From a virus (Duplodnaviria; Caudoviricetes), in the IMG/VR virus record IMGVR_UViG_3300030045_000025, positions 1-29,943 of that record: DNA of 29,943 bases; one strand, written 5' to 3'. Made by a program: the position numbers and the translations under genes. Below are positions 1,547 through 29,082 of this stretch, in pieces. Every line of letters begins with the position of its first letter. The first letter of the stretch is position 1. Below the pieces are notes generated by a model. That model was not told where the DNA came from. It made no database searches and saw nothing but the letters and a program-made list of their open reading frames with translations.

Positions 1547-2331
1547 GCTCCCACCTTGGCGTCAAACGCCCGCTTCGCTCGGTCCTGCCAAACCTCGGCC
1601 GGCACACTGTCCAATTGTGAGAGCTGGAACGCGAGCGATCCCGCCAACTTGCGCGCCCTGCCCGGATGGGCCACCGCGAGAGATTCAACGTAGGACCGCG
1701 CCCAATTCACTAAAGCGGGTTCAGCTTCCGTTTTAGATGCCGATTCCGGCCCCGTAGCGCCAATTTCAGACACTTTCACGGGTTCCGCCTTACTGACAGG
1801 CCCGGAAGCACTTTTTCCACGAAGCGCGACCGCGCCGGCGGATACCAGTTCCGCGCCATGCGCCGCGTCCAAAGCCGAGTTGAATTTGCGTGCCCGCCGT
1901 TCGCGGCGAGCTACCACGTTCCGCTCTTCATCCCAGGTGTTAGAACGAAGCCCGGCCATGCGAGCGATGTTATCGCAGTGCATCGGGTGATCGCCGTTCG
2001 CGTGGCAGTATTCGGCCACATTGCCCTCGAAGCGAGCATGAATCACTTCGCGGAACATCTTACGATGGTCTATCGCGTCCACGTTGGCTTTACGTAATTC
2101 GGCGCGCTGGTACTTCTCAATCGCTTCGAGTTCCTCTTGCGACAGCTCGAATACTTCATCGTGCATGGTGTCGAGTTCCTCATCGGTGAAGCCGCCATCG
2201 GGATAAGCGCAGTTATTGCATTGCCCGTCGGCGCGGTCGATGAGTTGGATTAGGTTGCAGGTGGGGCATATCAGGGGAGTTGACATGGTGAGTTCCTTAA
2301 AAAACGGGGAGTTCGGAAGCCGGTCCGACAT
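1543..2331 (-). CDS. Hypothetical protein with N-terminal CxxC-x10-CxxC zinc-ribbon-like motif
   Basis: CPTC...CNNC followed by an acidic helix; start is either near-leaderless at 2331 (5 nt after TACAAT) or at 2286 (AAGGA RBS, MSTPLICPTC). Confidence 0.7.
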   Translation of the reverse strand: MSDRLPNSPFFKELTMSTPLICPTCNLIQLIDRADGQCNNCAYPDGGFTDEELDTMHDEVFELSQEELEAIEKYQRAELRKANVDAIDHRKMFREVIHARFEGNVAEYCHANGDHPMHCDNIARMAGLRSNTWDEERNVVARRERRARKFNSALDAAHGAELVSAGAVALRGKSASGPVSKAEPVKVSEIGATGPESASKTEAEPALVNWARSYVESLAVAHPGRARKLAGSLAFQLSQLDSVPAEVWQDRAKRAFDAKVGA

Positions 2332-2336
2332 GAGGA

Positions 2337-2366
2337 ATTGTAAATCGTATCAGTGAGACGGTGCAA
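2337..2366 (-). promoter_or_regulatory. Putative sigma70-type leftward promoter with palindromic operator
   Basis: Minus strand TTGCAC-18 nt-TACAAT; spacer contains CGTCTCA-C-TGATACG, an imperfect palindrome. Confidence 0.6.
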
Positions 2367-2874
2367 TGGCTGATTACCATGTCTGGACTAATGAGTGTTT
2401 TAAAGACTCTGCGTTGAGTCATTACCAGAACGCGCGGGAGGGGGAGTTTGTTTGAGAAACGACGGATCAAAAATTCTCAATTCACGTTTAAAATCATCCG
2501 CGAGGGGGTGTAATGTATGATTTTCGACGGTTTGAGGCACTTTGCGACTTCATGGCCTTGATTCCTGGAGTTCGCCAGCGCGCCCTTGCCTTGGCTGCCC
2601 ACGTGTGATACCCGCGATCAGAGGAAAGGTTGGGAGAGCCTTGGAAGCCTGGCCGCGAGAGTTTTGTGTTTGAGAACTGCCATTCTCATACACAAAAACC
2701 GTCTGGTTTCCGGCCCAGCTGGCCGAAGGATTTACACAGGGGGGTAGCCTCTTTTTGCCGGAGGGGATGTCCTGAAATTTTCCGGCCCTTCCCGCACTGG
2801 AGGGGAAAAATCCTTTGGGTAAGGGCCACTCAAAAACCGTATCCATTCCCCGCGTTCGTTGCCTAATAATAAAA

Positions 2875-3110
2875 AGTGTCTCAAGTGTCTCACTGGTGTC
2901 TCACGCCAAAAGTGAGACACCGGACTCCGTGGGCAAAAAGTGTCTCACAAAGTCCATCTCTCTCTGTCTTAAGACAGAGATGAGACGGTTGAGACTAATG
3001 CCGGGGCACTGTCTCAGAGACGGTACGCGGCCCTACTAATTGGTCGTGTGTCTCAAGGGTTTTTGAGACTATTAGGTTTTTTCTCATACGGGAAAGGAGG
3101 TTTGAGACGG
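2875..3110. repeat. Iteron cluster / putative replication origin
   Basis: GTCTCA at 2878, 2887, 2898, 2942, 3011, 3050 and TGAGAC at 2913, 2981, 2990, 3064, 3103; perfect 20-bp palindrome TCTCTGTCTTAAGACAGAGA at 2961-2980; A/T-rich flank at 2864-2875; lies at the 3' end of the helicase gene. Confidence 0.75.
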
Positions 3111-4526
3111 TTCGGTGCCGTCCTTGGGGAAATACCGGCCAGCGGACTCCACGACAACATCCGCCGCAACCAACTGTTTTTTGGCCCGCCAGAACGAAGC
3201 ACGGGAGACGGAGGCCGCCTTGCACGCCTCTTCCCACTCCTTGCTCTTAACCGGCCCCGGGAAATTCTGGAGGATGGACAGTACGTTGTTTTGCGTCTCG
3301 GTGACCTCGACCTCTATGACCGTCTGATCCGCGCGGTCAAGAACCATATTGGTTCTTCCCCCCGGCAAGTCCACAAGTCGCCTCGTGAGCCCGAAGTCGT
3401 TGAATTCCAAGGCGCCTTTTAATTTCTGGCAATGGATGGTCAAGGAGATGTCATCTCGGGCGACGGTGATCCGCGTGTCCATGCCGCCGGGAAGGGATGA
3501 CGAGCCGCGCAGATCGCCTCCTTTGCCTTGGTGATGGACCACGATCACCGCCGCGCCCGCAGCTGCAATTCTGGCGATGTTGTGGACAAATATTCCCATG
3601 TCCTGGGCGGAGTTCTCGTCGCCCCCAACCATGCACCTTGCCAGGGTGTCCACAATCACGAGGACCGGAGATGGGTTCATTTTCGCGATTATGGACAGGA
3701 GAAGCCCCACGTCCTCGGATTCCAGAAGTTGTACGGCATCGGGGATGATGCCGGCCGATGGAGGCCATTTCATGCCGCGGGCCACCTGCCACGCGTGAAT
3801 GCGGCTTACGAGGCCGCCCTTCCCCTCGGCGGAAATGTAAAGCACTGGGCCAGGCGTGACGTTGTTTCCGTACCATGCGTGACCCGTGGCGACACATCCC
3901 GCGAGTTCGACGGCCATATAGCTTTTGTACGCGCCTGGCGGCCCCTCAATGGTTCCGACCGTGCGCTCTTGAATCACGCCTTCCACGAGCCATTTTGGTT
4001 CGGGAAAAACCTCAAGTTCCTCAAGTGTGTATACCCGGATCTTGTCCGATGCTTCGCCCGCCGATTGCGCCGTTCGCTTCGAAATCTTGTCCGTCAACTC
4101 GGCCATCTTTTGCGTAATTTCGGACGGCCTGGATCCGTTAAGGGCGCTTTGGCGAAGGAGGTCCAGCCCATCGGCGGCCATGCGCTTGATCGCGGCCTCG
4201 GCAATGAGGGCGAGATAATTCTCGATGTTCTCCAGCTCGCCGGTTGACTGCGCGAGGGCTTCGATTCGCTCAGGGCCGCCGGCCGCGGCGAGATGGCCGC
4301 TCTTGCGTAGCGCCTCGATCACGCTTACCGCATCATGGAAGTGGCCAGCCCGGAAGTCGCCGATCACGATGCGGGCGATTTCCAAGAATTCCGGAACGTT
4401 GAAATCCGCCGGGATGAGTCCGAATTTCTCCACCGCAATGGCGAGCGCGGTGCGGTCCGTCAGGAGGATTTTTAGCGCCGCTTCCTCGGCGTGAGGCGCG
4501 GAGGGGAGTTGAGAGTCAGCGGCCAT
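3084..4526 (-). CDS. Replicative helicase: DnaB N-terminal-like domain + AAA_25 (RepA-like SF4) domain + probable C-terminal winged helix
   Basis: N-terminus LPSAPHAEEAALKILL resembles DnaB_N; WLVEGVI, Walker A GPPGAYKS, VLYISAEG, Walker B LVIVDTLAR, DENSAQDM, VHHQGK..LRGSSSL; GGAGG RBS. Confidence 0.9.
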   Translation of the reverse strand: MAADSQLPSAPHAEEAALKILLTDRTALAIAVEKFGLIPADFNVPEFLEIARIVIGDFRAGHFHDAVSVIEALRKSGHLAAAGGPERIEALAQSTGELENIENYLALIAEAAIKRMAADGLDLLRQSALNGSRPSEITQKMAELTDKISKRTAQSAGEASDKIRVYTLEELEVFPEPKWLVEGVIQERTVGTIEGPPGAYKSYMAVELAGCVATGHAWYGNNVTPGPVLYISAEGKGGLVSRIHAWQVARGMKWPPSAGIIPDAVQLLESEDVGLLLSIIAKMNPSPVLVIVDTLARCMVGGDENSAQDMGIFVHNIARIAAAGAAVIVVHHQGKGGDLRGSSSLPGGMDTRITVARDDISLTIHCQKLKGALEFNDFGLTRRLVDLPGGRTNMVLDRADQTVIEVEVTETQNNVLSILQNFPGPVKSKEWEEACKAASVSRASFWRAKKQLVAADVVVESAGRYFPKDGTEPSQTSFPV

Positions 4527-4803
4527 TTTGCGCCTCCGTGACTTTCTCGATCAGCATTTCGACGGCCATGGGGTCAGCCGGAACGGCGAAGGCGCGATGA
4601 GAGCAAATGAGGCCGAGCCGATCAAGGGGATTTGAAGTGTGGGTGCCGCCGCCCCATGTGTGCTTGCCGCCGCATCCAGGGCAATTGGCCACATGCCAGA
4701 TCCACGCGCCGAGGTGGCGGCGTCCTTGAAATCGTAATTCAGCTCTGGCAATTGGAGGTGTGCGGGATGTGTCGCCGTCTTGGCGCGGAATTTGTATACT
4801 CAC
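4516..4803 (-). CDS. Small putative Zn-binding protein (95 aa)
   Basis: GTG at 4803 with GGAG RBS (the ORF-track start at 4923 would cross the divergent promoter region); CPGCGGKH motif plus a later C; overlaps the helicase start by 11 nt. Confidence 0.6.
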   Translation of the reverse strand: MSIQIPRQDGDTSRTPPIARAELRFQGRRHLGAWIWHVANCPGCGGKHTWGGGTHTSNPLDRLGLICSHRAFAVPADPMAVEMLIEKVTEAQNGR

Positions 4804-4922
4804 GTTGCTCCATTCAGCAAACAGCGCGTCGGGATTGGCTCTCCTGGCGCGCTTTCGTTTGGGTGAAAGGTGCCGGCGCTGTTTGTGGGGATTCCGGCGA
4901 AGCCGGTAGCGATAGGATAGCA

Positions 4923-4957
4923 AAAACGGAAGCTATTCCTCTTTGGTTTGATATAAT
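4923..4957 (+). promoter_or_regulatory. Rightward promoter of the morphogenesis operon, with the repeated motif at its -35 position
   Basis: Extended -10 TG-A-TATAAT (4949-4957), 7 nt before ATG 4965 (leaderless geometry); AAAACGGAAGCTATTCC at 4923-4939. Confidence 0.7.
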
Positions 4958-4964
4958 TCCTTCC

Positions 4965-5393
4965 ATGAAATCGAACCCGACAGAAATCCCCCTTCCGGCG
5001 AATTCCCGCGAGGAACATTTCGCCAACCGCGATGACGCGGAGACGCGCGGCGTGATGGGCAACCTACGCCGCAATCATCCCGGCTGGAGCGAAGAGCGCA
5101 TTCGCGAAGTCGTCGGCGCAGTGCTTTACCCGGTTCGGCGCAAGCTGATCCCGGACAAGCCCCGCGAGCTCACCAAAGAGCAAAAGCGTGAGGCCACCGC
5201 GGTGCGAGAACTCGCGAAGAAACTCCGCAAGAAATTCGTGGGTGCGACCGCTGATTCCCGCACCGAAGCGCTGGCCAAGGTCAAGCGCATGAGCGAAGGC
5301 GCGCGCAAAAAGGTTTGGGCCCAGGCGAAGAAATATGCCGAGGCGCGGCCGGAAGTCGTCAACGGCGCTTACGCGAACCACGGGAGCGAGTAA
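4965..5393 (+). CDS. Hypothetical basic protein (142 aa), first gene of the rightward operon
   Basis: MKSNPTEIPLPANSREEHF...; probably leaderless; ends 5 nt before the TerS start. Confidence 0.7.
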   Translation: MKSNPTEIPLPANSREEHFANRDDAETRGVMGNLRRNHPGWSEERIREVVGAVLYPVRRKLIPDKPRELTKEQKREATAVRELAKKLRKKFVGATADSRTEALAKVKRMSEGARKKVWAQAKKYAEARPEVVNGAYANHGSE

Positions 5394-5398
5394 CTCCG

Positions 5399-6205: not shown

Positions 6206-6210
6206 TCTCC

Positions 6211-7758
6211 ATGGCCCAAGAATTGATGCGGATGGGCGCGAATGGCCGGATGGAGGTCGCTCTTCACCCGGGCCAGGCCCTCGCCATGGATTCCTTGGCC
6301 ACGGAGACCTACATCTCCGCCGGCCTGCAGAGCGGGAAAACTTCGCTATTAGCGCACTGGTTGATAGAAGAAATGATCCGGTGCGGTCCGGGCAATCCGG
6401 AGATTTGCTACCTCGCGATAGGCCCCGAGCTCACGATTTTGCGCAATAAGCTGGTGCCAGGCTTCCGTCGCATCTTCGAAGGGCTGTCGGGCTGGGCGAA
6501 ATTCACCTCCCAGCCAAAAATGAGCCTCACCTTCACGCCCTTGGGCGAACAGGCACTGTGGGGCCACGAGCAAAAAGAGAAGACATCGATCAACTTTTGC
6601 TTCGCGTCGGACTCGGACAGCTTCGCCGGCTACACCGCCCTTGCGGCCGTGGGCGACGAAACCGGGCAAGATGCCTTCCGCCGGTCGTCGCTCCTGGAAA
6701 TGCGCGGACGGCTTTCCATTGCGAGGGGCCAAGTTGCCCCGTACAACAACAAGGTTGGGCGCCCAAATCACCTGAAAATGGGGCGGCTGTGCTTTGGGAG
6801 TATCGTCTACGGCCTTGGGTGGATGTACGACTTCTACAAACAGTGGCGGGCCGCGGCCGAGGACGTCAAGAAGCGCGATTACCGAAATTTCGCCACGCGA
6901 ATGCACCTGGGTACCGTGCATCCGCAAATGCACTTCGTGCGCTTCGATTCGACGCGAAATCCCGCCTTTCCGCCGGAAGAATTTGAAATCGCGCGTCGAT
7001 CGCTGCCGAAATGGCTGTTCGATCAGCGCTACAGGGGTATTTTCACGCGGCCGGCCGGCTTGATTTTCGACCAATGGGATCCACAGTTCGAAGTGGAGGG
7101 CATCGCGACACCGCCGTATTACCCTCGGGCGGCGGCGTTCGACCCGGGCGACGTGAATTTCTACGGCCTTTCGGGCGCGATGGATCCGGTGACCCAGATT
7201 TGGACGATCACGGATCTCTACTGTGACCGCGAGCACAGCATGGAATGGCGCGGCGAGGACATTGTACGCAGGTGGCCGAACCTGATTTGGTGTGCGGTGG
7301 GCCAGATTTCCGAGGAAAGATGGCGCATGGAGTTGCTACGCGGCGGACTCCGATCTACGCCGCCCGCGATCAAGGACTTTTGGGGCCAGGTCAACGCGGT
7401 TAACTCCGCCATGATGCGCGGGCTCCTCCGTGTGGACCGCGCGGCTTGCGCCGAAGTTATTGACGACTTCGGGACGTTCTCGCGGCCCACCGACAAGAAC
7501 ACGGGCGAAGTGATGCAGGGTGAAAAGCCCGTGGATGAGAAGAAGCGGCACTACATGGCCGCCCTCCGATACTTCGGCACCGAGGCATTTCTTGCGAGAG
7601 ACGCAAGCGAGGCCGGCACCGCACCGCCGAGGCAGCACGATGCACCCGCGATAGGCGCCCCCATGGGAGTCTTGGCCGCCGGTATGGGGCTCGGGCAGAT
7701 GAGAGATGGCGGGTTCAGGTTGGACCAGGTGAACCGAGGAGACCGCTTTCTCCGCTAA
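6211..7758 (+). CDS. terL: Terminase large subunit
   Basis: Q motif LHPGQ, Walker A AGLQSGKT, Walker B AAVGDE, STRNPAFP, RYRGIF, nuclease AAFDPG and HYMAALRY; real start 6211 (the track extension to 5593 overlaps TerS). Confidence 0.9.
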   Translation: MAQELMRMGANGRMEVALHPGQALAMDSLATETYISAGLQSGKTSLLAHWLIEEMIRCGPGNPEICYLAIGPELTILRNKLVPGFRRIFEGLSGWAKFTSQPKMSLTFTPLGEQALWGHEQKEKTSINFCFASDSDSFAGYTALAAVGDETGQDAFRRSSLLEMRGRLSIARGQVAPYNNKVGRPNHLKMGRLCFGSIVYGLGWMYDFYKQWRAAAEDVKKRDYRNFATRMHLGTVHPQMHFVRFDSTRNPAFPPEEFEIARRSLPKWLFDQRYRGIFTRPAGLIFDQWDPQFEVEGIATPPYYPRAAAFDPGDVNFYGLSGAMDPVTQIWTITDLYCDREHSMEWRGEDIVRRWPNLIWCAVGQISEERWRMELLRGGLRSTPPAIKDFWGQVNAVNSAMMRGLLRVDRAACAEVIDDFGTFSRPTDKNTGEVMQGEKPVDEKKRHYMAALRYFGTEAFLARDASEAGTAPPRQHDAPAIGAPMGVLAAGMGLGQMRDGGFRLDQVNRGDRFLR

Positions 7759-7775
7759 AACCGGAAGCTGCCCCG
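7757..7775 (+). promoter_or_regulatory. Start-associated repeated motif
   Basis: AAAACCGGAAGCTGCCCCG fills the whole terL-sigma gap and abuts the ATG. Confidence 0.65.
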
Positions 7776-8465
7776 ATGTCCATACCTCTTGACCCAGACA
7801 ACCTGCCGCCGGCCATGGACCAAGCGACGTTCTTGTACTCGCTGGAGCGGTATCGCGCGGGCGATGTCGCGGCCGGGCAGAGGATCGTGGAAGGGAATAT
7901 CCGGCTCGTCTACTACGTGGTTTCAAACCGGTATCGCTCGCTTCCCGCGTCCGACCGGGCGTGCGTGGAGTTCCGGGACCTTGTGCAGGAGGGAACTTTC
8001 GGACTCTACGACGCGATGCGACTCTACGACCCGAAGCGCGGGTTTAAATTCTCCACTTACGCGACCAGATGGATTTGGAAGTACGTCTATCTCGCGGTGG
8101 ACTGTGAGCGCCTGGATCCGTGTTCGACAATGTGGAGGCCGTCCTTTCTTCGTGATCCATCGGAAATTGATGATTACGAAGAGATGGCTGAGTCCGTGCC
8201 GGACACTGGCCCAGCAGTCCATGATTTGGCTGAAAGGCGCGTGGATTCCGCCACGACCGCGGTGGAAATCCGGGCGGCCGTGGCGAAATTACGCCCGGCC
8301 GAGGCGAAGGTCATCACGCTTCTGTACGGCCTGAGCGATGGAAAAACACGCACCCTGGTCGAAGTCGGCGCGATTATGGGCGTCTCGGACGAACGGGTCC
8401 GCGTGATCCGCAACCAGGGCGCCGCGCTACTCAAGTCGATGCTCTCCGACCCCCGCGATTGTTGA
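7776..8465 (+). CDS. Phage-encoded sigma70-family RNA polymerase sigma factor
   Basis: Region 2 AGDVAAGQRIVEGNIRLV...DLVQEGTFGLYDAMRLYDPKRGFKFSTYATRWI; region 4 LRPAEAKVITLLYGL...RTLVEVGAIMGVSDERVRVI. Confidence 0.93.
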   Translation: MSIPLDPDNLPPAMDQATFLYSLERYRAGDVAAGQRIVEGNIRLVYYVVSNRYRSLPASDRACVEFRDLVQEGTFGLYDAMRLYDPKRGFKFSTYATRWIWKYVYLAVDCERLDPCSTMWRPSFLRDPSEIDDYEEMAESVPDTGPAVHDLAERRVDSATTAVEIRAAVAKLRPAEAKVITLLYGLSDGKTRTLVEVGAIMGVSDERVRVIRNQGAALLKSMLSDPRDC

Positions 8466-8491
8466 TTGTGAAAATTCGCGCCCGTACAATG
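8461..8491 (+). promoter_or_regulatory. Promoter for portal
   Basis: TTGATT-17 nt-TACAAT, 5-8 nt before GTG/ATG; 22 of 31 nt identical to 11355-11385. Confidence 0.7.
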
Positions 8492-8495
8492 GGGC

Positions 8496-10262
8496 GTGAT
8501 GGCTCTCCCCAAAAGCGCACCCACACCCGTCAGCATTCCGGACAGAGACGCGACGGTAAATTCCCTGGTCCAGACGGCGGGCGCGCAGGGGATAAATGTC
8601 CAGCAGACCGACCCCCGGCTTGAATATGTCTCCGGCGGCTTCAGCGTCCCCACGTGGATGTGGCTGGCGCAACTCCCCACGCCCGACGACGACCTTGACA
8701 ACCTGATTGGCAACGACGTCTACGGGCGCATGGCGGCGGATGAGCAGATTTTCTCTTCAACGATGACGCTGGTCATGATGACGCTGCGCCGGAAGTTGAC
8801 GCTGCGGCCCGCCTATGCGGATCCAGAGAGAGACCCGGACGATTTTGACAACGGAATCCAGGTCCGTGATTTCTGCCGGCGCGCGCTGGACAATCTGGGC
8901 AAGCGGCACACCACGATTGATGACGTACTCGCGCAAATGTTGTGGGCGGCCATGCGGTTCGGCAACAACATGGCGGAAATCACCTACGAGCGCGGGACCG
9001 GCGAGGACGCGAACCGGTATTACTTCGCCAAAATCAAGCCCAAGAGCCGCCACAACACATTTTTCGTGGTGGACGTGTTTTTCAACTTCCTGGGCTTCGC
9101 GGTTTACACGGGGCCCTACGAGCAATGGCTCGCCGAGCTCACGCGCCTGGTGGAATCGACGGACGGCAAAAACACGCTGGTCACCACGGAGACGCTCCTC
9201 AATGCGCCGGCCAAGCAGATTGTGGATCCCGGCGCGGGCAAGCCGAAGATGGCCACCACGCCGCCGATTATGCCGATCCCGGCCATCTGGAATTTCGTCT
9301 CCCGCGAAAAGTTTGCCGTGCTTACCCTGCTGGACGAATTCGCCGATCCCCGCGGGCGCAGCTGGTGGCGGTCGATTTACAACCAGTGGTATTTGAAAAT
9401 GCACCGGCTGGAACAGGCGAACCTTTACGGTCGCCGGTTTGGCCTGCCCATCCCCATCGGCATTGCTTCGCCGACCGCGCCGGATCAATACCCTTTCAAT
9501 CCGGACGGCACCGTCAACACGAGCGCGCCCAAGATCACGGCTTCGCAAGCCCTCCTTCAGGTACTTCAGTTCATGCAGGCCGGAAATGCCGTCGCGGCGC
9601 CCGCTGGAACCATAATCACGCTTTCTCAAAACGTGAATGATGGCGGCTACCTCGCCGGCTCCATCGAGCAACACGACGCCGCGATTATCAAGGGAATCAC
9701 GTTCCAGAAGTTGGCGACCTCCGCGTCTCCGCACCAAGCCAAGGCGGCCGGCACGGTGCATGAAAACGTGCTCAATACGCCGGTCCACTACCTCAAGGAA
9801 AAAATCTGCCGGATGGTCAAATACGACATTCTGGCCCCGCTGGTGGAGCTCAACTTCGGCCCCGAGTTCCGCAAGTACATCCCTGAGCCGGACCTGGGCA
9901 AGATCGACAACGACGACCTTGTGCCGCTGCTGGTGGGCATCGGCCAGTTCATGGCGAACGGCGGCGGCCATTACTCCATGTTGCCGGAGCTGCAGAATTA
10001 CCTCGGGCTGCCGGAGTGCGATATTCGCCAATGGATGGAAGACATCAAGGCTGAAAAGGCGCTCCTGGTGGCGACGGGCACCCCTGACCCCGCGGGTGAC
10101 GGATCGCAGCCCGGAGGCGCCGGCGGGGGGCTGGATCAGGACGTTAAAAATCGCATTGGCCGCAACGCGGGCGAACGGGTCTCCAAAAAGGTTATGGGGC
10201 GCGACGGAGCCGGATTTTCGCGCCAAACGGAAGCTGTTCCGGTTAACGAGGTGGAAGCATGA
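8496..10262 (+). CDS. Portal protein (DUF935 / Mu gp29-like)
   Basis: Position after TerL; YGRMAADEQI, AMRFGNNMAEITY, DPRGRSWWRSIYNQWYLK...RRFGLPIPIG, AGTVHENV, LAPLVELNFG; start 8496 (GTG) or 8499 (ATG). Confidence 0.88.
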   Translation: MMALPKSAPTPVSIPDRDATVNSLVQTAGAQGINVQQTDPRLEYVSGGFSVPTWMWLAQLPTPDDDLDNLIGNDVYGRMAADEQIFSSTMTLVMMTLRRKLTLRPAYADPERDPDDFDNGIQVRDFCRRALDNLGKRHTTIDDVLAQMLWAAMRFGNNMAEITYERGTGEDANRYYFAKIKPKSRHNTFFVVDVFFNFLGFAVYTGPYEQWLAELTRLVESTDGKNTLVTTETLLNAPAKQIVDPGAGKPKMATTPPIMPIPAIWNFVSREKFAVLTLLDEFADPRGRSWWRSIYNQWYLKMHRLEQANLYGRRFGLPIPIGIASPTAPDQYPFNPDGTVNTSAPKITASQALLQVLQFMQAGNAVAAPAGTIITLSQNVNDGGYLAGSIEQHDAAIIKGITFQKLATSASPHQAKAAGTVHENVLNTPVHYLKEKICRMVKYDILAPLVELNFGPEFRKYIPEPDLGKIDNDDLVPLLVGIGQFMANGGGHYSMLPELQNYLGLPECDIRQWMEDIKAEKALLVATGTPDPAGDGSQPGGAGGGLDQDVKNRIGRNAGERVSKKVMGRDGAGFSRQTEAVPVNEVEA

Positions 10263-10609: not shown

Positions 10610-10616
10610 GGAACTT

Positions 10617-12076: not shown

Positions 12077-12829
12077 ATGGCCCAGCGTCTACTCCAAGCA
12101 CAAAACCCCAGCAAGATCGAGCCGGCACTTTATCCGGACGATGCGCGCACCATCGCCGTGGCGCTGGCCGCGAGCATTTCCCAGACCGCGCGGGGAACCA
12201 TCCTCGCGCAGAACTCCACTTCGGGGCTCTACAACGCCTATGCGTCCGCCGTGCTCGCGGCGCCCACCACGGCGCTGACGCTCACCCCGACCGGCAGCGA
12301 CGGCACGCTGCCCACCGGCGTTTACCAGGTGGCCTACACGCTGGTCGATGCCGCCGGCAATGAGACCACGATCAATACGCCGGCCTCGGTGACCGTGGGT
12401 TCCACCAATCATATCGCGATCACAGCGATCACGCCCCTCCCGGCCGGTGCAGCTTCCGCCAACATCTACATCACGGACCCGGCCGGCGGAATCTTCCACC
12501 AGGTTTTCTCCGGTTGGACCGGCGCGGCGCACAGCATCACGGCACCGGTTTACGGTGGCCAGCGGGAGCCGATTTACAACAAAGCCGTTTCCGGCGTCGC
12601 GATTGCCATGTTCGATTTCTCCACGGATGCGAGCGGCAATGTGTTCATCGGTCAGAACGTGAACGAAACCGGAATCTATTCCGATGCCAAGCCGACGTTG
12701 CAGTGCTACCACCGCGGCTATTTCAACATCAGCGACTTGCAGGCCGGCGCCGCCGCGATTCTGCAGGGCCTCATCCCCGGAGTCCGGTTCATCAGTTCCG
12801 GATCCACGCAAATCGTTCTCATCCCGTAA
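12077..12829 (+). CDS. Head decoration protein (lambda gpD-like) with inserted beta-rich domain
   Basis: Directly upstream of the capsid gene; RGTILAQNSTSGLYNAY...GVAIAMFD...YHRGYFNISDL; insert GTLPTGVYQVAYTLVDAAGNET; GGAGG RBS. Confidence 0.72.
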   Translation: MAQRLLQAQNPSKIEPALYPDDARTIAVALAASISQTARGTILAQNSTSGLYNAYASAVLAAPTTALTLTPTGSDGTLPTGVYQVAYTLVDAAGNETTINTPASVTVGSTNHIAITAITPLPAGAASANIYITDPAGGIFHQVFSGWTGAAHSITAPVYGGQREPIYNKAVSGVAIAMFDFSTDASGNVFIGQNVNETGIYSDAKPTLQCYHRGYFNISDLQAGAAAILQGLIPGVRFISSGSTQIVLIP

Positions 12830-12880
12830 CTCCGGCCGCAAACCGGAAGCTGTTCCGTTTGACTCTGAGGAAAAACTACC

Positions 12881-13936
12881 ATGACAGTCGTATACGTCTA
12901 CGAACCCCAAGCCACTTACCAGCGGATCGCCGCCGAACTGGTGCCGAACCTCCTGGAAGAGGAAGCACTCAGCGACTTCTTCCCCCTGGAGAACATCCAG
13001 CGCACGCGGCTGATCTGGACTCAGGATGACAACCAGACCGGCATCATGAGCCTGCGCGGCGAAGGCGGTTCGCCGACCAACACGTCTCGCATCGGCCAGA
13101 AGAGCTATGAGGCCACCCCCGGGTTCTTCGGCAACTTCCTGACCCTCGGCGAAACCGAGCTCATGGAGCGCACCGGAACCGGCAACTTCGACGGACTCAA
13201 CGTGGATATCAACGTCCACGACCTGGTGGCCGCCGATCAGGGGCGCCTCGCCGTGCAATACCGCTGGCGCTGGAAACAGATGATGGGCACGCTGCTCAAT
13301 ACGGGCACCCTGACCATCAACCTGCCGGACGGTTCGCCGGGCTACAGCACCAGCTACACCCAGCAGACGTTTTCGCCGGGCACCGCATGGACCACTCACG
13401 CGAGCGCGACTCCGCTGCTTGATCTGATGAATCTGCAGATCAATTACGGTCGCGGAACCAGCAACGATTTTGGTAGTCGCGCCACGGCTTATATGAGCTC
13501 CAAGACCTTTCAGGACTTGCGGTTCAACAGTAACAGCGCGGACCTTTACGGGCGCTTCCCCACCACCACGCCACTCGCCATGCGTTCGCTCAAGGACGTC
13601 AACGAAATCCTCCTGGCGTCCGGTGCCCCGCAGGTCAAGATCGTGGAGACGGGCTACCTGAATGCTTCCGGCACTTGGGTATTGGACTTCCCGGATGGCG
13701 TGGTCCAGGTTCTGGCCGCTCGCCCCACCGGCGAGAAGCCGGGCGCGGCCATCATGACGAAGAACGCGCTCAATCCGGGCATGGCCCCGGGCGTGTACTC
13801 CTTCGTCAACGACTTCCAGAACGCGGTGGGCGGCGTTCGCATCGCGATCCCGCCCCGTATTGATGTTCACATGGGCTTCAACGGGGGCGCCGTGATGAAG
13901 CGGACCCTCCAGGTTGTCACCATCACTTCGGCGTAA
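12881..13936 (+). CDS. Major capsid protein (lambda gpE-like, HK97 fold)
   Basis: 351 aa; LSDFFP, RWKQMMGTLLNTG, WTTHASATPLLDL, AYMSSKTFQDL; position after decoration gene; GAGGA RBS. Confidence 0.88.
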   Translation: MTVVYVYEPQATYQRIAAELVPNLLEEEALSDFFPLENIQRTRLIWTQDDNQTGIMSLRGEGGSPTNTSRIGQKSYEATPGFFGNFLTLGETELMERTGTGNFDGLNVDINVHDLVAADQGRLAVQYRWRWKQMMGTLLNTGTLTINLPDGSPGYSTSYTQQTFSPGTAWTTHASATPLLDLMNLQINYGRGTSNDFGSRATAYMSSKTFQDLRFNSNSADLYGRFPTTTPLAMRSLKDVNEILLASGAPQVKIVETGYLNASGTWVLDFPDGVVQVLAARPTGEKPGAAIMTKNALNPGMAPGVYSFVNDFQNAVGGVRIAIPPRIDVHMGFNGGAVMKRTLQVVTITSA

Positions 13937-14318: not shown

Positions 14319-14349
14319 AAAGCGCGCGTCCACCCGGGCGCGCGCTTTT
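14319..14349 (+). terminator. Intrinsic terminator after head genes
   Basis: AAAGCGCGCGTCC-ACCC-GGGCGCGCGCTTTT stem-loop with T tract. Confidence 0.75.
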
Positions 14350-14360
14350 CCCTTATCGCC

Positions 14361-16087: not shown

Positions 16088-16561
16088 ATGGCGACGACTT
16101 CAACCGGATCGAGCGACCTCCTCGCAGCGCTGCGCGCGGTGCTCATTGAGGAGTGCGAAGATATTTCAGCGGCCGGGATCTTCCTGGGTTCGATTCAGGC
16201 TGAGGATCCCATGCCGGCGTTTGTGTTGTGCGTGAAGAGCAATCGCGCCAAAAAGAAGTTGGGCGGCGCGGCCGGCGAGTGCCGGATGATTCAAGTGAGC
16301 ATGAAAGCCGTGTCCTCTGACGTGGCCGGCGAGACCGGCTATGCGGTCGTGGACTCCCTCGCCAACTCCAATTATCAGCTTTGGACCAATGGCGGCGGAT
16401 TGCCGGGGCAGGCGCTTCTCGCGGCCATCCTGGGGCCCGTGGGCTGGCAAGTCGGCGTCCCTGTTGAGATGTGCGATATCGGTCCGTATAATGAGTTGAT
16501 CGACAAAGACGAGCGTTGGCACACCGGCCATCTGTTCCTGTTCACGATCTCCACTGTCTGA
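16088..16561 (+). CDS. Tail terminator (DUF3168-like, putative)
   Basis: 157 aa immediately before the tube genes; LLAALRAVL...PMPAFVL...WHTGHLF pattern. Confidence 0.6.
   Translation: MATTSTGSSDLLAALRAVLIEECEDISAAGIFLGSIQAEDPMPAFVLCVKSNRAKKKLGGAAGECRMIQVSMKAVSSDVAGETGYAVVDSLANSNYQLWTNGGGLPGQALLAAILGPVGWQVGVPVEMCDIGPYNELIDKDERWHTGHLFLFTISTV
16463..16493 (+). promoter_or_regulatory. Internal promoter for tail-tube genes
   Basis: TTGAGA-17 nt-TATAAT inside the terminator-protein CDS, about 80 nt upstream of 16572; fits GTTG-N17-CCGTAYAATG. Confidence 0.65.
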
Positions 16562-16571: not shown

Positions 16572-18881
16572 ATGGCGCAAATTGGAGCCGGAGCACAAAT
16601 CTACCTGGACGGCGTTCCTATTCATCAGGACCAGGCCAAGGCGATGGTCACTTTCTCTCAGGAGGAAGTCGATCACACACGCCTTGGCCAGATCGGCGCG
16701 CCGTGGAAAAGTCACCTGGTGACGCTGAATGATGGCAAGGTGAGCCTGAACGGCGACTGCCCGAGCGTGGATATCGACGCGATCAACCGCCTCGAGAACC
16801 TCATCAACCTGCGCACACTGCACACGCTGGCGCTCTGCCCCTTCGGCGCCGGGTTCAATTACCTCTCGATCATCGCCAACGTCCGCGCCACGAAACCGGC
16901 CGAGATTTCTATTCCCGTCAACGGGATTGTTTCGCTCGACACGGATTTCATCACGTCGGCGGCTTCGCCGGGGATGGTGTGCGGCCGCGTTGGGTGGACG
17001 CCGGTGGGGAACGGGAGTGCGACCAGCACCTCTGGATTGAACCTGGTCTACACCAGCGTTGATGCGAATCAGCGGTTTTGCTTCGTGGTGGATGGCGGGG
17101 CAGTTTCCGCTCCATTCACGGCTGCGACCTCGAATTCGTCGCTCGTGACGCTTCTGGAGGCGCTGCTCGGCGGTACGATCACGGTCACTGGGACGCTCAG
17201 CACTTCAGGTTCTTCCCCGCATGTGTTGTATTCCGGAAGTCTCGCCATTTCCTTCGGGGGCTCACTGGCTGGTACGCCCATTGAACCGCCGGAAATCCGG
17301 AGCGGCGCGGTGCAGTCCTTCACCATCGCCGGTGGCGACGCGGGCGAGTACACCATTGACGGCTCTGGGAACTTCACCTTGGGCGCTTCCTCTTCGACGG
17401 TGCAGGGGCTCTTGCAGGCTCTCGCCGGGATTTACGCGAATGCGACGGTCGTTGGTTCCAGCGCCGCGCCGGTTTCGCCTCAGCAATCTGTGGAGTTCAC
17501 CAACGTCCCGTCGCCGGTCTGGGCGGCCGTTCAGGGCACCGGCAACGCGGCCCTCTCCGACGTTGCGGACCCGACTTCCAACGCGGATTGGATCTCGGCC
17601 ATTGAGGCGTGCGCGGCCTACAGCGGGCAGACGGTCACGGCGTCCGGAGGCATCACCCTTTCCGGCGGTTTGCTCAACGGGACCATCACCTTCACCTTCA
17701 GTTCGTATCCCGCGCCGCTTTTAAAAGTGGTCACCGGCGTGATCGACAACGTGACGGCCTCCGCGGCGATTTCGATTGACGGTGTGACGGTGACGCCGGG
17801 GGATTCGATCTCCACGATCCAGGCGAATTTGCGCGCGGCGGGTGGGAGCGACGCAGAGGTTTATGTGACCGGTACGAGCGCGGCGGGCAGCGGCGGCTCG
17901 GTCGTGATGACCTCCGAGTTTCACGGGTACGACGCATTTACCTACGCCGGCAGTCTGAACGGACAGTTCTATTTCGTTCAAAGTGGCGGCTCCATGGGTG
18001 GCTGGTGGGGCCCGGCCGGCTACCTGTATTGGTCGCCGCCGGACGAACAATGGGTGGTATCCGGCACGCTGGGAGACACCATTGCTGAGTCAGTGACCAC
18101 CTATGGACGCGCCTATTCGCTGCCGCCGGCCGTCGCCGATACGCCGAATCCAGCGGCTGACTTTCCCACCGGAAACGCGGCGTATTGGACGGACCACGGA
18201 GGCAATGACATCGGCGGGGCCGGAGACACCGGTTCATATACCCCGCCGGCCGGCGCTTCCCTCAACCTCAACCTGCTCTACCCCACCGCCGCCGGCGCAG
18301 TCAGCCCCACCGTAACCGTGGGGGTTCTGACCCAGACCGCCGCGAAGGGCACCGTCCTCGCCAACTCCACCATCGCCACCGTTGCCGCCGGCAGCGCTGG
18401 CAGCGGACTCTACAACGCCTATTTCCCGCCCGCGTCCGGCAACGTGCCAGCCGCCGCGACCGGGACCGGAGCCACGGCGGCTGGCACGACCACGGGCGGT
18501 AGCGTGGCCACCGGCATCGTGGACGCGAGCGCGGTGGAAGGCCACACCTACACCAATGCCAACGTCATCAGCGGCACCGGTTCAAGCTCCGACCTCGCCG
18601 ATATCCCGAGCAGCACCACGACCAGCAATGGCGCGATGCTCCAACAGCAGGTACTCTTCGTGAGCGCCGGAGGTTCGCTGACGCAGGCCGTGGACCACGC
18701 GCCGGACGTGGACGGCAGCCCCGGCACCTACGTCGCGCTGGGGACCTTCCCGTCCGCAACCCAACCCGGAACAGCTTCCATTTATATCCCGCCGGGGACC
18801 ACGATTTACCCGCATGTCCGCGTGAATCAAACGGCCGTCACCGGCACCGCGATCTCGCATGTGACGTTCGCAAGGCTGTAA
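16572..18881 (+). CDS. Long tail-tube paralog (769 aa) with large Gly/Ser/Thr/Ala-rich extension
   Basis: N-terminus MAQIGAGAQIY...EEVDHTRLG...WKSHLVTLNDGKVS aligns with 18939-19469; about 620 additional residues; GAGGA RBS. Confidence 0.75.
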   Translation: MAQIGAGAQIYLDGVPIHQDQAKAMVTFSQEEVDHTRLGQIGAPWKSHLVTLNDGKVSLNGDCPSVDIDAINRLENLINLRTLHTLALCPFGAGFNYLSIIANVRATKPAEISIPVNGIVSLDTDFITSAASPGMVCGRVGWTPVGNGSATSTSGLNLVYTSVDANQRFCFVVDGGAVSAPFTAATSNSSLVTLLEALLGGTITVTGTLSTSGSSPHVLYSGSLAISFGGSLAGTPIEPPEIRSGAVQSFTIAGGDAGEYTIDGSGNFTLGASSSTVQGLLQALAGIYANATVVGSSAAPVSPQQSVEFTNVPSPVWAAVQGTGNAALSDVADPTSNADWISAIEACAAYSGQTVTASGGITLSGGLLNGTITFTFSSYPAPLLKVVTGVIDNVTASAAISIDGVTVTPGDSISTIQANLRAAGGSDAEVYVTGTSAAGSGGSVVMTSEFHGYDAFTYAGSLNGQFYFVQSGGSMGGWWGPAGYLYWSPPDEQWVVSGTLGDTIAESVTTYGRAYSLPPAVADTPNPAADFPTGNAAYWTDHGGNDIGGAGDTGSYTPPAGASLNLNLLYPTAAGAVSPTVTVGVLTQTAAKGTVLANSTIATVAAGSAGSGLYNAYFPPASGNVPAAATGTGATAAGTTTGGSVATGIVDASAVEGHTYTNANVISGTGSSSDLADIPSSTTTSNGAMLQQQVLFVSAGGSLTQAVDHAPDVDGSPGTYVALGTFPSATQPGTASIYIPPGTTIYPHVRVNQTAVTGTAISHVTFARL

Positions 18882-19469: not shown

Positions 19470-19514
19470 ACCGGCAACTGTTCCGGAAACCCCTCCGGAA
19501 CCCTACTCACTCAC

Positions 19515-19577
19515 GGGCCACCTTCGGCGTTCACGCTCACGCGTGGGGGACGCGTCGAAGGTGGCCCTCCTGTTTTT
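19515..19577 (+). terminator. Large hairpin / terminator-like structure after tube genes
   Basis: GGGCCACCTTCG (19515-19526) pairs with CGAAGGTGGCCC (19556-19567), inner pairing also possible; followed by TCCTGTTTTT. Confidence 0.6.
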
Positions 19578-19599
19578 ACTCCCCATCCCCAAGGAATCC

Positions 19600-20474: not shown

Positions 20475-20476
20475 CC

Positions 20477-26383: not shown

Positions 26384-26406
26384 AATAGAAACCGGAAGCT
26401 GCCCCT

Positions 26407-26973
26407 ATGGCCACAATCCTCGACATCGAACTCCCGACCGGCTGGATCAAAATGGTGGGTATCCCCACCGCCGACCTGACCCGGCAGGGCAAGATAGGCA
26501 ATTGGGTTCTGCAGGATAACGACCCCTACGCGATCTTCACCATTGCCGCGAGCTACCGCCGGAGCGATTACGAGACGGCCGAGGGCATCAGCTTCGATGA
26601 CCTCTATTCGTTCTTCCTGGTCTCGAAGGGCTGCGGGTTCCTTGTGACGGACCCGATTGACAACGCGGATTCCGACAAGAACGGTTCAGGCATGATCCTG
26701 GAACTCAACGGCACGTGGCGGCTGTTCAAGCGGTACACGAATCAGGGGCTTACCTACGACCATCCGATTACCCGGCCAAATGACGTGACGGTGAACGCGG
26801 GTACGCTGGACCCCGCGACCGGGATCGTGACCGGGATAACGGAAGCTGGCACCTGGACCGGGACGTTTTACCGGCCGATGATCTTCCAGGAGAACGGGCT
26901 GCAATTCGAATTCACGCCGGACGGGATTATTGATGCGTTGGATTTGAGGTTGGAAGAGCAGTTGGAGGTTTGA
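26407..26973 (+). CDS. Distal tail protein (DUF2460-like)
   Basis: Follows tape measure; LYSFFLVSKGCGFLVTDPID, WRLFKRY, PITRP, LDPATGIVT, WTGTFYRPMIF. Confidence 0.78.
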   Translation: MATILDIELPTGWIKMVGIPTADLTRQGKIGNWVLQDNDPYAIFTIAASYRRSDYETAEGISFDDLYSFFLVSKGCGFLVTDPIDNADSDKNGSGMILELNGTWRLFKRYTNQGLTYDHPITRPNDVTVNAGTLDPATGIVTGITEAGTWTGTFYRPMIFQENGLQFEFTPDGIIDALDLRLEEQLEV

Positions 26974-26977
26974 TTCC

Positions 26978-27451
26978 ATGCAAGAGAGCCTATTTCAGTC
27001 GATGCCAGGAATTACTTGGCTCTCCGTGCGGGACGGGAATCCTCACGCGAGGGCTCTCTTCGACAAGCATTATTCCCGGTACATCTATGCGGATGGCCGC
27101 AAACCTAAACTCTTCATAGGGCCCGGTGAGAAGATGGTTCTCATGACCCCGTGTGGGCGCGCGCTATTCGCATGGAGGAAGTTCCGATCCATGGATCACC
27201 AGGAGGGCGTCAATTGTGCCATCTTCCGAAACGAAGGCGCGGGAACGTCAAGCGAACTCATCCGCGCGGCCGTGGAACTTGCAAAGGAGCGTTGGCCCGG
27301 TGATCGTCTTTACACCTACGTGAACCCTCGCGCGGTGGTAAGCGCGAACCCGGGCTTTTGTTTCAAGATGGCCGGGTGGCGTCAATGCGGCGTCACCAAG
27401 AAGCGGAATTTGCTGATCTTTGAGTTTCTTCCCGACCAAACCGGAACCTGA
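26978..27451 (+). CDS. Putative Mom-like / GNAT-fold protein inserted in the tail module
   Basis: GGAGG RBS; ARALFDKHYSR and LYTYVNP...NPGFCFKMAGWRQCG; more A/T-ending codons than its neighbours by eye. Confidence 0.55.
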   Translation: MQESLFQSMPGITWLSVRDGNPHARALFDKHYSRYIYADGRKPKLFIGPGEKMVLMTPCGRALFAWRKFRSMDHQEGVNCAIFRNEGAGTSSELIRAAVELAKERWPGDRLYTYVNPRAVVSANPGFCFKMAGWRQCGVTKKRNLLIFEFLPDQTGT

Positions 27452-27457
27452 CCCGCC

Positions 27458-28372
27458 ATGCCCTCCTCCCTCACCTCCCCGCAACTCGCCTTCCTGACCA
27501 GCCAGAGCACCGCCTTTGCGCTGGCCTTGCGCATTGTGGGCAACCAGGGCACGGTCTACGCCTTCACCAACATCCGGCGCAACTCCTACCTCGCGGATTT
27601 CTCAATCAACTCCATCGACGTTCCGGCCACGACCTACCTCTCCGCCGGCAGTCTCCGCACCTCAAACCTTGAATGGAATCTCAAGGTCGCAGCCCTTGAT
27701 ACCTTCGAGTCCTACCTGACCCTCGGCTCTTGGCTCCCCGCGCTTGACATCGCGACCGGCAAGCTCAAGTCCGCGCCCTTCACCCTCCTCATGTTCGACT
27801 GGCGGACCAACACGGTTATCCGCGGACTCATGCGGGGCACCATCGGCGAGACGACCTACGCGGGTTCCAAGGCGACGCTCAAATGCCGGGGGCTCAAATG
27901 GGCCCTGCAATTCGACGTGGGCGACGTGACCAGCGGTATCAGCCGGGCGCGGACCTGGGATCATCCGGCCCTCGCGTTCTTCACGCCGGGCACAAGCACC
28001 AACACGCCGGACGGCAAAGCCTCGCAACTCTCCACCACAGTGAGCAGCGTGGGCACCTACCCCAACCGGCAGATCACGCTTTCGGCCACGGCGGGATTCC
28101 CGGCCCGGCGGTTCGTGGGCGGGACGGTCACCTTTGCCTCTGGCGCCAACCAGGGCACCTACGGGATCCAGCAATGGGATCCATCGGCGGGCGCCACGGT
28201 GCTTGACGATCCCGGCACGCCAACACCGATGACGGCCGGGGATGCGTGCGTGGTCACGATTGGCCCGCCGGTTACGTTCGAGGATTGGCAGGCGTGTTTT
28301 ACCAGCGGGAAGTATTTCGCCGGAGAGCCGGCGATTCCTGGGCCCGATGGCGTTGTGAGGGTTTCCGGCTAA
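27458..28372 (+). CDS. Tail hub protein (DUF2163 / BR0599-like)
   Basis: ALALRIV...VYAFTN, DIATGKLKSA, FDWR, RGTIGE, CRGLKWALQ..VG, C-terminal FAGEPAIPGPD. Confidence 0.8.
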   Translation: MPSSLTSPQLAFLTSQSTAFALALRIVGNQGTVYAFTNIRRNSYLADFSINSIDVPATTYLSAGSLRTSNLEWNLKVAALDTFESYLTLGSWLPALDIATGKLKSAPFTLLMFDWRTNTVIRGLMRGTIGETTYAGSKATLKCRGLKWALQFDVGDVTSGISRARTWDHPALAFFTPGTSTNTPDGKASQLSTTVSSVGTYPNRQITLSATAGFPARRFVGGTVTFASGANQGTYGIQQWDPSAGATVLDDPGTPTPMTAGDACVVTIGPPVTFEDWQACFTSGKYFAGEPAIPGPDGVVRVSG

Positions 28373-28830
28373 TGCCCATCCAATCCCCCCACCGCGTCGT
28401 CAAGGAAGCGAGAGACCTCCTCGGGGCTCCGTGGCAGCACCAGGGGCGAACGGCCCTGGGCATCGACTGTACGGGCCTCGTGATCGTCTCCGCGCTTCAC
28501 GCTGGCTGGAACCCCGTGGACGGGATGCGAGTGCTTCACCTGAATTACCGCAACACTCCTAACGATGATTCGCTCGAGCGCGCACTGGCGAAAGAGGGTG
28601 TCCGGGTGCCGGTGGACGAACTGAGGCTCGCCGACGTGGTTCTCTTCCACCTCAAGCCCTGCCCGCATCCCTTTCACGTTGGGCTGGTCTCGCAATTCGT
28701 GGGCGACGTGCCGTATGTGATCCACGCCGACGCAACCGCCAAGAAGGTCGTGGAGCACGCCCTCTCGGGTCATTGGCGAGAGCAGGCCGTGTGCGGGTAT
28801 AGGTTCCGCGACCTGGTTTATTTTGAATAA
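28372..28830 (+). CDS. NlpC/P60 family tail-associated peptidase
   Basis: EARDLLGAPWQHQGRTALGIDCTGLV (Cys), ADVVLF, HVGLV (His), VIHAD (His); TAATG overlap start. Confidence 0.9.
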   Translation: MPIQSPHRVVKEARDLLGAPWQHQGRTALGIDCTGLVIVSALHAGWNPVDGMRVLHLNYRNTPNDDSLERALAKEGVRVPVDELRLADVVLFHLKPCPHPFHVGLVSQFVGDVPYVIHADATAKKVVEHALSGHWREQAVCGYRFRDLVYFE

Positions 28831-28844
28831 CGGAAACTGTTCCG

Positions 28845-29078
28845 ATGACCGCGACCGCGCGCGTTGGCCTCTTGGAGTTGGGGCTTGGCACGTGCCTCAC
28901 CGATGAGCAGCGCGAGCGGTATGTGGCGTTCATGGATGCCGTGGAACGCGAGGGGCGAATTCTGGAAGGCGACACCTGGCGCCCTTGCAGCCACGCTTAC
29001 GCGGAGCGGCAGAGTAGCGAGGTTTCGCGGAAACGGCACGAGCGGTATTTGAGAAGCAAGGCAAGAAACGGAAGCTGA
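28845..29078 (+). CDS. Hypothetical protein (77 aa) inserted between NlpC/P60 and tail tip genes
   Basis: Fills the gap exactly; bounded at both ends by the repeated motif. Confidence 0.55.
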   Translation: MTATARVGLLELGLGTCLTDEQRERYVAFMDAVEREGRILEGDTWRPCSHAYAERQSSEVSRKRHERYLRSKARNGS

Positions 29079-29082
29079 TCCT

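Follow-up and report, generated by a model that had tools for sequence, protein, structure and literature searches.

What could be the role of a short oriented repeat that recurs in front of genes in a phage genome? The question is raised by a 29.9-kilobase (kb) fragment of an uncultured tailed phage (virus record IMGVR_UViG_3300030045_000025, positions 1 to 29,943; 61% guanine plus cytosine, GC), the whole of which we refer to as the window. Sequence of this phage is present in peat metagenome runs, and no RNA runs are listed among those containing it. We tentatively propose that the repeat may be a late promoter-operator cassette, in which a promoter box read by a phage-encoded sigma factor is overlaid by the binding site of a dimeric protein. 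The likelihoods attached below to this and to other readings are matters of judgement and were not computed.

The repeat and its copies

A first-pass annotation made from the letters alone had listed 12 copies, and we find all of them at their positions. The word CGGAANCTGHYCC has 17 matches with at most one mismatch, against 1.46 ± 1.15 in 100 dinucleotide shuffles (maximum 5). The excess also persists over a codon-shuffled background, since shuffles that preserve the proteins and codon usage yield 0.26-1.3 hits (maximum 3-5 in 200). In a de novo ranking of the 13-mers of the window the motif comes first (log10 p -15.4); with its variants set aside, the best remaining word reaches -5.9. A weight matrix of 18 columns, built from the 12 listed copies and hence trained on its own sites, returns 13 sites at 19.8-29.9 bits, followed by the next site at 11.0; the thirteenth, at 12670, is new. 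Each of the 12 copies, when held out, ranks in the top 13 of about 60,000 positions, the weakest (26840) scoring 11.5 bits when left out. Near-matches at 407, 5139, 12458, 17109 and 20377 were excluded for their low score, as was one at 23877 with 11.0 bits. The 13 sites, with distances in nucleotides (nt) to open reading frames (ORFs) and, where present, Shine-Dalgarno (SD) sequences, are as follows.

1717..1730, minus strand: copy 1, CGGAAGCTGAACCC; within ORF 1543-2286, 170 nt before the start of ORF 1319-1546
4927..4940, plus strand: copy 2, CGGAAGCTATTCCT; between divergent -10 boxes, spanning both predicted -35 slots
7762..7775, plus strand: copy 3, CGGAAGCTGCCCCG; adjoins the ATG of the sigma gene
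10228..10241, plus strand: copy 4, CGGAAGCTGTTCCG; 3' end of the portal gene, 17 nt before ORF 10259, with a strong SD between
12670..12683, plus strand: copy 5, CGGAATCTATTCCG; inside ORF 12077-12829, 197 nt before the major capsid gene
12844..12857, plus strand: copy 6, CGGAAGCTGTTCCG; 23 nt before the major capsid gene, with an SD between
18767..18780, minus strand: copy 7, TGGAAGCTGTTCCG; the sole reversed copy, 3' end of ORF 16572-18881, 158 nt before ORF 18939
19472..19485, plus strand: copy 8, CGGCAACTGTTCCG; 114 nt before ORF 19600, the sole copy with C at the predicted -11
26393..26406, plus strand: copy 9, CGGAAGCTGCCCCT; adjoins the ATG of tail gene 26407
26840..26853, plus strand: copy 10, partial, CGGAAGCTGGCACC; inside 26407-26973, 124 nt before ORF 26978
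27442..27455, plus strand: copy 11, CGGAACCTGACCCG; includes the stop codon of 26978-27451 and ends 2 nt short of the hub gene ATG
28831..28844, plus strand: copy 12, CGGAAACTGTTCCG; occupies the entire gap from a stop codon to ATG 28845
29069..29082, plus strand: copy 13, CGGAAGCTGATCCT; contains the stop codon of 28845-29078 and adjoins ATG 29083

The consensus of the 13 copies is AAA(A/C)CGGAAGCTGTTCCG. Among the 12 listed copies, information is concentrated in AAA(A/C)CGGAAGCTG and CC, and the flanks are flat. Near-identical contigs show no change within any copy that they cover. An exact search of the literature for the 13-mer, with subscription journals mostly outside its coverage, found no paper, and Rfam searches of the window and of contigs L013, L038 and L041 gave no match on the motif and one sub-threshold match, a hairpin at 14319-14358. 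We rejected a host-factor or otherwise shared site: scans with exact patterns gave 1 and 15 loci on unrelated contigs, a single copy on each, and none of these loci has a tblastn link to the window.

Placement relative to start codons

The leftward genes of the window encode a DUF4942 protein, an AAA helicase and others. The rightward series begins at 4965 with a probable small terminase, followed by the terminase, a sigma factor, the portal, capsid genes and tail genes, and to the right of these by the tape measure, hub, NlpC/P60 and tail tip genes. On a hand-curated map of 30 genes, and with a limit of 200 nt chosen post hoc with the data in view (largest distance 197), all 13 copies lie upstream of a start (background 0.20, p = 9e-10); eight are within 25 nt of it (background 0.027) and five within 2 nt (background 0.003). 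The reported co-orientation with transcription in 11 of 12 copies holds, and becomes 12 of 13 once the new copy is counted (two-sided p = 0.003). The preference for stop/start junctions can be refined: eight copies are intergenic or overlap a stop codon, but copies 1 (1730), 4 (10228), 5 (12670), 7 (18780) and 10 (26840) lie wholly within genes. All five of these gene-internal copies are nevertheless within 200 nt before the next start (background 0.18, p = 2e-4), and no copy occurs in the deep interior of the 5.9-kb tape measure gene, the terminase or the portal. Placement and orientation of the 13 copies thus support the proposed genome-wide, start-linked regulatory element.

The 14-mer directly adjoins the ATG of 7776, 26407, 28845 and 29083, as had been noted, and ends 2 nt before 27458. 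In these five closest copies the distance to the ATG is nearly constant (0, 0, 0, 0 and 2), while the distance to the upstream stop varies (3, 9, 0, -10 and -10), so that the ATG and not the upstream stop is the anchor of the motif. The SD sequences of the five abutting genes, measured as pairing with an anti-SD tail, are weaker (-3.5 to -5.3 kcal/mol) than the median of -5.6 for the other 25 genes (p = 0.02). Most other genes carry ordinary GGAG, GAGG or AGGA words, and at 10259 and 12881 the SD is located downstream of the motif. Is the repeat then a plain SD variant? Its conservation over about 18 positions and the location of 8 of 13 copies at least 17 nt from a start argue that it is not.

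The newly found copy 5 adjoins an out-of-frame ATG, and directly after it runs a 66-codon out-of-frame ORF (12684-12884) whose terminal ATGA overlaps the major capsid start. This arrangement could be translational coupling, or chance.

Symmetry of the element

The best copies had been described as palindromic, and a DNA dyad is indeed supported, although both 5-base-pair (bp) arms are perfect in only 4 of 13 copies (10228, 12670, 12844 and 28831). In the eight copies without an abutting ATG, T fills 12 of the 24 slots at positions 16-18 (p = 7e-4). The symmetry is therefore real at the DNA level and the dyad reaches about 22 bp. Overall the motif is a dyad of 14-22 bp with a stronger left half and a degenerate right arm.

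The suggested RNA tetraloop hairpin fares worse, because the right arm drifts without compensation. The stem pairs are kept in 8, 13, 12, 7 and 7 of 13 copies, pairs 4:11 and 5:10 being those kept in only seven; none of the changes is compensatory, and the predicted folds range from -0.1 to -6.1 kcal/mol.

A phage sigma factor as candidate reader

7776..8465, plus strand: phage sigma factor, SigA-derived, with region 2.3 intact and region 3 largely missing

The first-pass annotation had named two proteins of the window as possible binders. One of them, ORF 4965, is not supported: it is an orphan with two matches (itself and a 19-residue stretch) and no Atlas match, and its predicted structure is helical and of low confidence (predicted template modelling score, pTM, 0.29). 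The other, ORF 7776, is a protein of 229 amino acids (aa) with Sigma70_r2 and r4 domains, nearest to primary sigma factors. Compared with 30 homologs it keeps the core of region 2.3 with the melting region (FSTYAT..W). It carries K in the column of Q437 (Q in 28 of 30 homologs) and D in the column of R584 (R in 26 of 30). In sigma70, Q437 reads position -12 and R584 reads -31, and the suppressor described at the former residue is Q437H, which reads C (PMC2613000).

When the A of an abutting ATG is taken as +1, GAAGCT occupies -12 to -7. G is then found at -12 in 12 of 13 copies, A at -11 in 12, T at -7 in all 13, and CC at -3/-2 in 12-13. The pattern nAnnnT at -12 to -7 precedes 5 of 30 starts, four of them abutted by the motif, and the flanks of 12 copies hold no conserved -35 box. 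A changed -12 reader together with a lost -35 reader would fit a promoter with G at -12 and without a -35 box. These residues and this geometry make a promoter role for the candidate binder ORF 7776 the leading reading.

Predicted host-type promoters and the divergent switch

4914..4922, minus strand: leftward extended -10 box TGcTATCCT, predicted host-sigma promoter toward ORF 4516-4803 and the helicase
4949..4957, plus strand: rightward extended -10 box TGaTATAAT, putative promoter 7 nt before ATG 4965, which is without an SD

One copy had been placed on the -35 of the late promoter, and copy 2 (4927) in fact covers both predicted -35 slots of these divergent -10 boxes. Host-type -10 boxes at 4952 and 8485 lie 5-8 nt from SD-less starts (4965 and 8496/8499, respectively). 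The best host-type promoter of the scanned region, at 16464-16492 (11 of 12), has no copy of the motif nearby, nor does the portal promoter. Since host-type boxes adjoin SD-less starts and 16464-16492 lacks a nearby motif, late genes seem to be headed either by a host-type promoter or by the motif, one kind each, with the exception of 4927, where both meet.

A distant relative with a related dyad

Contig L013 extends the window leftward by 655 bases, which brings the available sequence of the phage to 30.6 kb. Scans of viral contigs with capsid, terminase and portal returned only near-identical copies (G002), one contig with a 30% identical terminase, from which the motif is absent, and the distant relative G001. 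Scans of genome contigs with the terminase alignment and with the G001 ParB found nothing, no ParB relative with DNA context turned up, and neither a terminase search of phages and plasmids nor a portal search of plasmids gave a match. A capsid search matched two Microcystis phage records at 24%, and four more terminase relatives (P0003-P0006) were found at 41-54%.

G001 (58.7 kb, 52% GC) is syntenic with the window from the terminase (57% identical) to the tail tip, and its sigma gene occupies the equivalent position. Among its products are ParA, two ParB-family proteins, RepA, a tyrosine recombinase and an S24-type repressor, which is why we read it as a phage-plasmid. Its sigma factor is 32-34% identical to ORF 7776 and has H in the Q437 column and R in the R584 column. 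The window pattern has no match in G001, where one window-type match of 16.5 bits (10061) is within chance. G001 contains instead exactly five near-perfect 33-bp dyads at 38.5-52.4 bits (next site 7.0), with the consensus GAGACATT(G/A)CGAAGC(A/T)GCTTCGCAATGTCTC; a scan of contigs with this pattern matched only G001. The window motif and the G001 dyad have in common the core GAAGCTG (column-shuffle p = 0.0015).

Three of the dyads fall in the region shared with the window, and two of these match window copies in position. One corresponds to copy 2 and lies between divergent -10 boxes before the packaging genes; the other corresponds to copy 4 (10228), in the same codons of the portal 3' end. 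For the third, which precedes the tape measure gene, no corresponding site in the window scores above threshold, and the remaining 11 copies of the window lack a counterpart in G001. On a rough ORF map, four of the five dyads are no more than about 115 nt away from a start (rough p = 0.0015) and stand at the head of the packaging, capsid, tail and probable lysis blocks; the fifth is inside the second parB gene. None lies beside the S24 repressor gene, where another motif, TATAATCAGTCAAG, repeats; the dyads are distinct from this motif and from the repA iterons. TATAATCAGTCAAG is a -10 box fused to a probable operator; its copies, at 28634, 40564, about 40679 (minus strand) and 43155, belong to the repressor region, to two early sites and to the late promoter. 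The iteron-like repeats number at least five, in two facing groups at 32865-33090, in the 5' part of the repA ORF.

The recurrence of the element on a DNA promoter switch in both phages bears on the possibility of a translational signal akin to the start-associated sequences discussed below, in which a protein or RNA would recognise a linear stretch of the mRNA and recruit ribosomes or block them. Orientation, anchoring at the ATG and the weak SD sequences of the abutting genes would all suit such a signal, but 8 of 13 copies lie at a distance of 17-197 nt from a start, and two of these precede a true SD; in addition, one copy is antisense and the stem is unconserved. We consider it very unlikely.

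Could the repeats be dispersed parS centromeres of a phage-plasmid, sited wherever they are tolerated? G001 encodes ParA and two ParB-family proteins, CTPase-type ParB included, the five-copy dyad is its only strong repeat besides the repA iterons and the repressor-region motif, and synteny would place a parAB module to the left of the first base of the window. Canonical parS, searched for at up to three mismatches, is absent from both phages. The phage-plasmid N15 reportedly has dispersed centromeres that affect late genes, and the G001 dyads may resemble it as dispersed palindromes used in gene control on a ParAB replicon. Partition, however, predicts neither the orientation of 12 of 13 copies, nor the start proximity of all 13, nor the exact abutment to ATGs; four of five G001 dyads are start-near as well, and the 30.6 kb available for the window phage show neither ParA nor ParB. 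A purely centromeric role thus appears quite unlikely.

Comparison with G001 also bears on another reading, in which the copies are footprints of recombination or insertion through which accessory genes are gained and lost. Copies 28831 and 29069 flank a 77-aa gene, and this gene, the 157-aa gene and the NlpC/P60 gene have no tblastn match in G001. Most intervals between copies, however, contain core virion genes, and near-identical contigs show no gain, loss or change at the copies they cover, so we regard such an origin as extremely unlikely. A tyrosine-recombinase site (13-7-13 in G001) was rejected because equal spacers in direct repeat would delete essential genes.

Possible mechanism

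How might promoter and operator share one site? In the cassette that we tentatively favour, while holding it short of probable, the host-sigma promoters at 4949-4957 and 8462-8490 would start the packaging operon, which includes the sigma gene. The sigma factor would then read GAAGCT as -12 to -7 with an A-rich CGG flank and no -35 box, and RNA would start at motif position 15. At 7776, 26407, 28845 and 29083 this position is the A of the ATG, and the mRNA would be leaderless; a gene 17-23 nt downstream would receive a leader with its own SD, and gene-internal copies would serve the next gene. The copy before the sigma gene would provide positive feedback. The 22-bp dyad would be bound by a dimeric protein whose gene lies beyond the window, perhaps a ParB/KorB-like one as in G001; this protein would shut the motif promoters in the lysogen and occupy the divergent early/late switch at 4914-4957. 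Promoter use by the sigma factor of the phage would account for the orientation, the closeness to starts, the exact spacing to the ATG, the SD pattern and the presence of a copy ahead of the sigma gene. A dimeric binder would account for the symmetry of the outer positions, for the reversed copy, for the location at the divergent switch and for the perfect G001 dyads. Particular to this case is that both signatures are on one element, and that there is a relative with opposite polarity and a different sigma residue.

Several observations weigh against the cassette. It requires two functions on one site, and no dimeric binder was found within the 30.6 kb available. That the lysine in the Q437 column would read G is our own inference. 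An A and a T at two given positions of any 14-mer have a chance of about 0.04-0.1, copy 19472 lacks the A at -11, and copy 18780 is reversed. The gene map was curated by hand and the 200-nt limit set after the fact, as stated above. Positions 7758-7793 and 26389-26424 are 81% alike over 36 nt, reaching into the reading frames, and the exact ATG spacing may therefore be inherited from copying. In G001 the GAAGCTG strand is antisense to transcription in all five dyads, the opposite of the window. Nor is there an excess of leaderless host promoters in G001, where TAnnnT with a spacer of 5-8 nt precedes 1 of 57 ORFs; G001 thus does not appear to repeat the promoter geometry of the window.

The opposite polarity would cost nothing if the main rival were true, a pure operator array in which a dimeric phage repressor, dedicated or KorB-like, blocks initiation or elongation at each dyad. 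If GGAAG also acted as a weak SD, this would account for the spacing to the ATG, for the orientation and for the greater strength of the left half. The dyad reaches 22 bp in copies without an ATG and is perfect in G001, a copy covers the -35 slots between divergent -10 boxes in both phages, and the reversed copy 18780, too, lies ahead of a start, by 158 nt. In addition, the second G001 motif overlaps the -10 of the same promoter, like KorA beside KorB (PMC13768133). SD spacing is normally loose, however, yet four copies are identically spaced; all five gene-internal copies are near starts and none is deep in the tape measure, terminase or portal; the promoters at 16464-16492 and of the portal are without a nearby copy; and the sigma factor is left without any repeated target. 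We see the array as a serious contender, though on balance unlikely. The stoperator proposed in the first-pass annotation is a possible form of blocking site, but not the best fit, as the gene-internal copies lie within 200 nt of the next start and the G001 dyad is absent from the repressor region.

Would the sigma factor suffice by itself, with the symmetry accidental or a relic? The evidence from position, SD sequences and sigma residues is the same as for the cassette, and single-box promoters are known for phage phiEco32 and predicted for 7-11 (PMC4331800). This simpler account leaves unexplained the outer-arm symmetry at +2 to +4 (p = 7e-4), the CC at -3/-2, the reversed copy and the perfect G001 dyads, and we think it unlikely to be the whole explanation.

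A more speculative extension of the cassette, to which we give only a slight chance, is a reversible promoter. The shared core has a possible -10 box on each strand (GAAGCT and CAGCTT), and the -12-reader residue of the sigma factor (K in the window, H in G001) would pick the strand. This would explain the orientation of 12 of 13 copies in the window against the opposite one of all five dyads in G001. A ParB-family clamp would also be loaded at the dyad, so that the prophage's partition as a plasmid and the silencing of its late promoters would be linked.

Comparison with known systems

By analogy, the nearest parallel to its mode of action appears to be the single-box promoters of phiEco32 and 7-11, with a dispersed operator of the KorB/OB kind added to them. 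In phiEco32 and Salmonella phage 7-11 these promoters belong to phage-encoded sigma factors (PMC4331800), and the window shares with them a short conserved motif upstream of middle or late genes, a sigma gene and, before it, a promoter, putative in the window. The window motif differs in sequence, is G-led, has dyad symmetry and often adjoins the ATG, and the window phage is probably a temperate siphophage with its sigma gene between terminase and portal. In KorB/OB of plasmid RK2, palindromes scattered over a ParAB replicon serve to control genes (PMC13768133). The core of the G001 dyad shares AGC-N-GCT with OB; OB-like matches with up to two mismatches number two in G001 and one in the window, but none coincides with the repeat, and the available part of the window phage has no ParB gene.

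The operators and stoperators of cluster A phages (L5, TipsytheTRex) are asymmetric 13-mers bound by a monomeric immunity repressor (PMC9283540). Like them, the window has many short sites (13 in 30 kb), in short intergenic spaces and oriented with transcription; unlike them, its motif is a partial dyad anchored at start codons, and the related dyad is missing from the repressor region of G001, a region that the window does not include. Cluster K start-associated sequences and their extended form (SAS/ESAS) contain AGGAG, lie 3-7 bp from the start, are non-palindromic and precede non-structural genes, their function being given as unknown (PMC3203893). They too are oriented repeats a few bases before the ATG, and upstream stop codons can fall inside them. 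The window motif lacks AGGAG, has 5 of 13 copies within 2 nt and 8 of 13 at 17-197 nt, and lies mostly before virion genes (capsid, tail, hub and tail tip). The 17-bp dyad repeats of cluster O (Corndog) are invariant in their arms, show little orientation and are not closely tied to starts (PMC4351075). They resemble the window motif as a genome-wide dyad, intergenic and intragenic, without a named binder, but the right arm of the latter is degenerate, 12 of 13 copies are oriented and all 13 are start-proximal.

Other features of the window and its relatives

No sequence beyond the window was found in the same assembly, and viral scans with the DUF4942 protein or with a second repeat, GGCATTGAGAGA, gave no further pieces of the missing early region. 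This second repeat has four early-region copies (window 256-268, minus strand, and L013 4874-5783), two of which follow a hairpin. In contigs of runs X3 and X4, window 256 is joined without a gap to what lies behind another copy, a pattern suggesting loss of the gene that stood between two copies. About 21 bases of GGCATTGAGAGA recur, once each, in the unrelated viral contigs L038, L039 and L041, and Rfam has no match to it. The region at 2330-3200, after the helicase, is non-coding and contains many (T)GAGAC(A) repeats in both directions, an AT-rich patch and long inverted repeats at 2662-2697, 2893-2923 and 2955-2982; it is likely a replication origin.

All 41 differences between the window and the near-identical G002 over 12.8 kb sit in a 465-nt patch of the hub gene (27763-28228, compared with L004), likely a recombination tract. 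The adjacent tail genes 16572 and 18939 have near-identical starts (80% over 41 nt; MAQIGAGA), an old duplication. Among the tail genes, 26978-27451 encodes a 157-aa protein of GNAT fold without a tblastn match in G001, and its predicted structure (template modelling, TM, score 0.68 to a Mom cluster) points to a possible DNA-modifying enzyme near the Mom family. In G001, a gene of the probable lysis block, at 12350-13369 (L006), encodes a protein that combines a hydrophobic N-terminus with PAS and response-regulator receiver domains.

Implications

For start-linked or dispersed repeats such as the cluster K SAS and the cluster O dyads, the available text of their papers gives no mechanism. The present case offers a named candidate reader, a 229-aa sigma factor whose specificity residues depart from those of the host sigma as the motif would need and whose own gene is preceded by a copy. 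If the cassette is true, it would represent a compact sigma-promoter pair, possibly orthogonal to that of the host, and would illustrate late expression from leaderless mRNAs whose promoters have an operator built in. If the repeats are instead pure operators, they would constitute another dispersed operator network, in a poorly sampled lineage of phage-plasmids.

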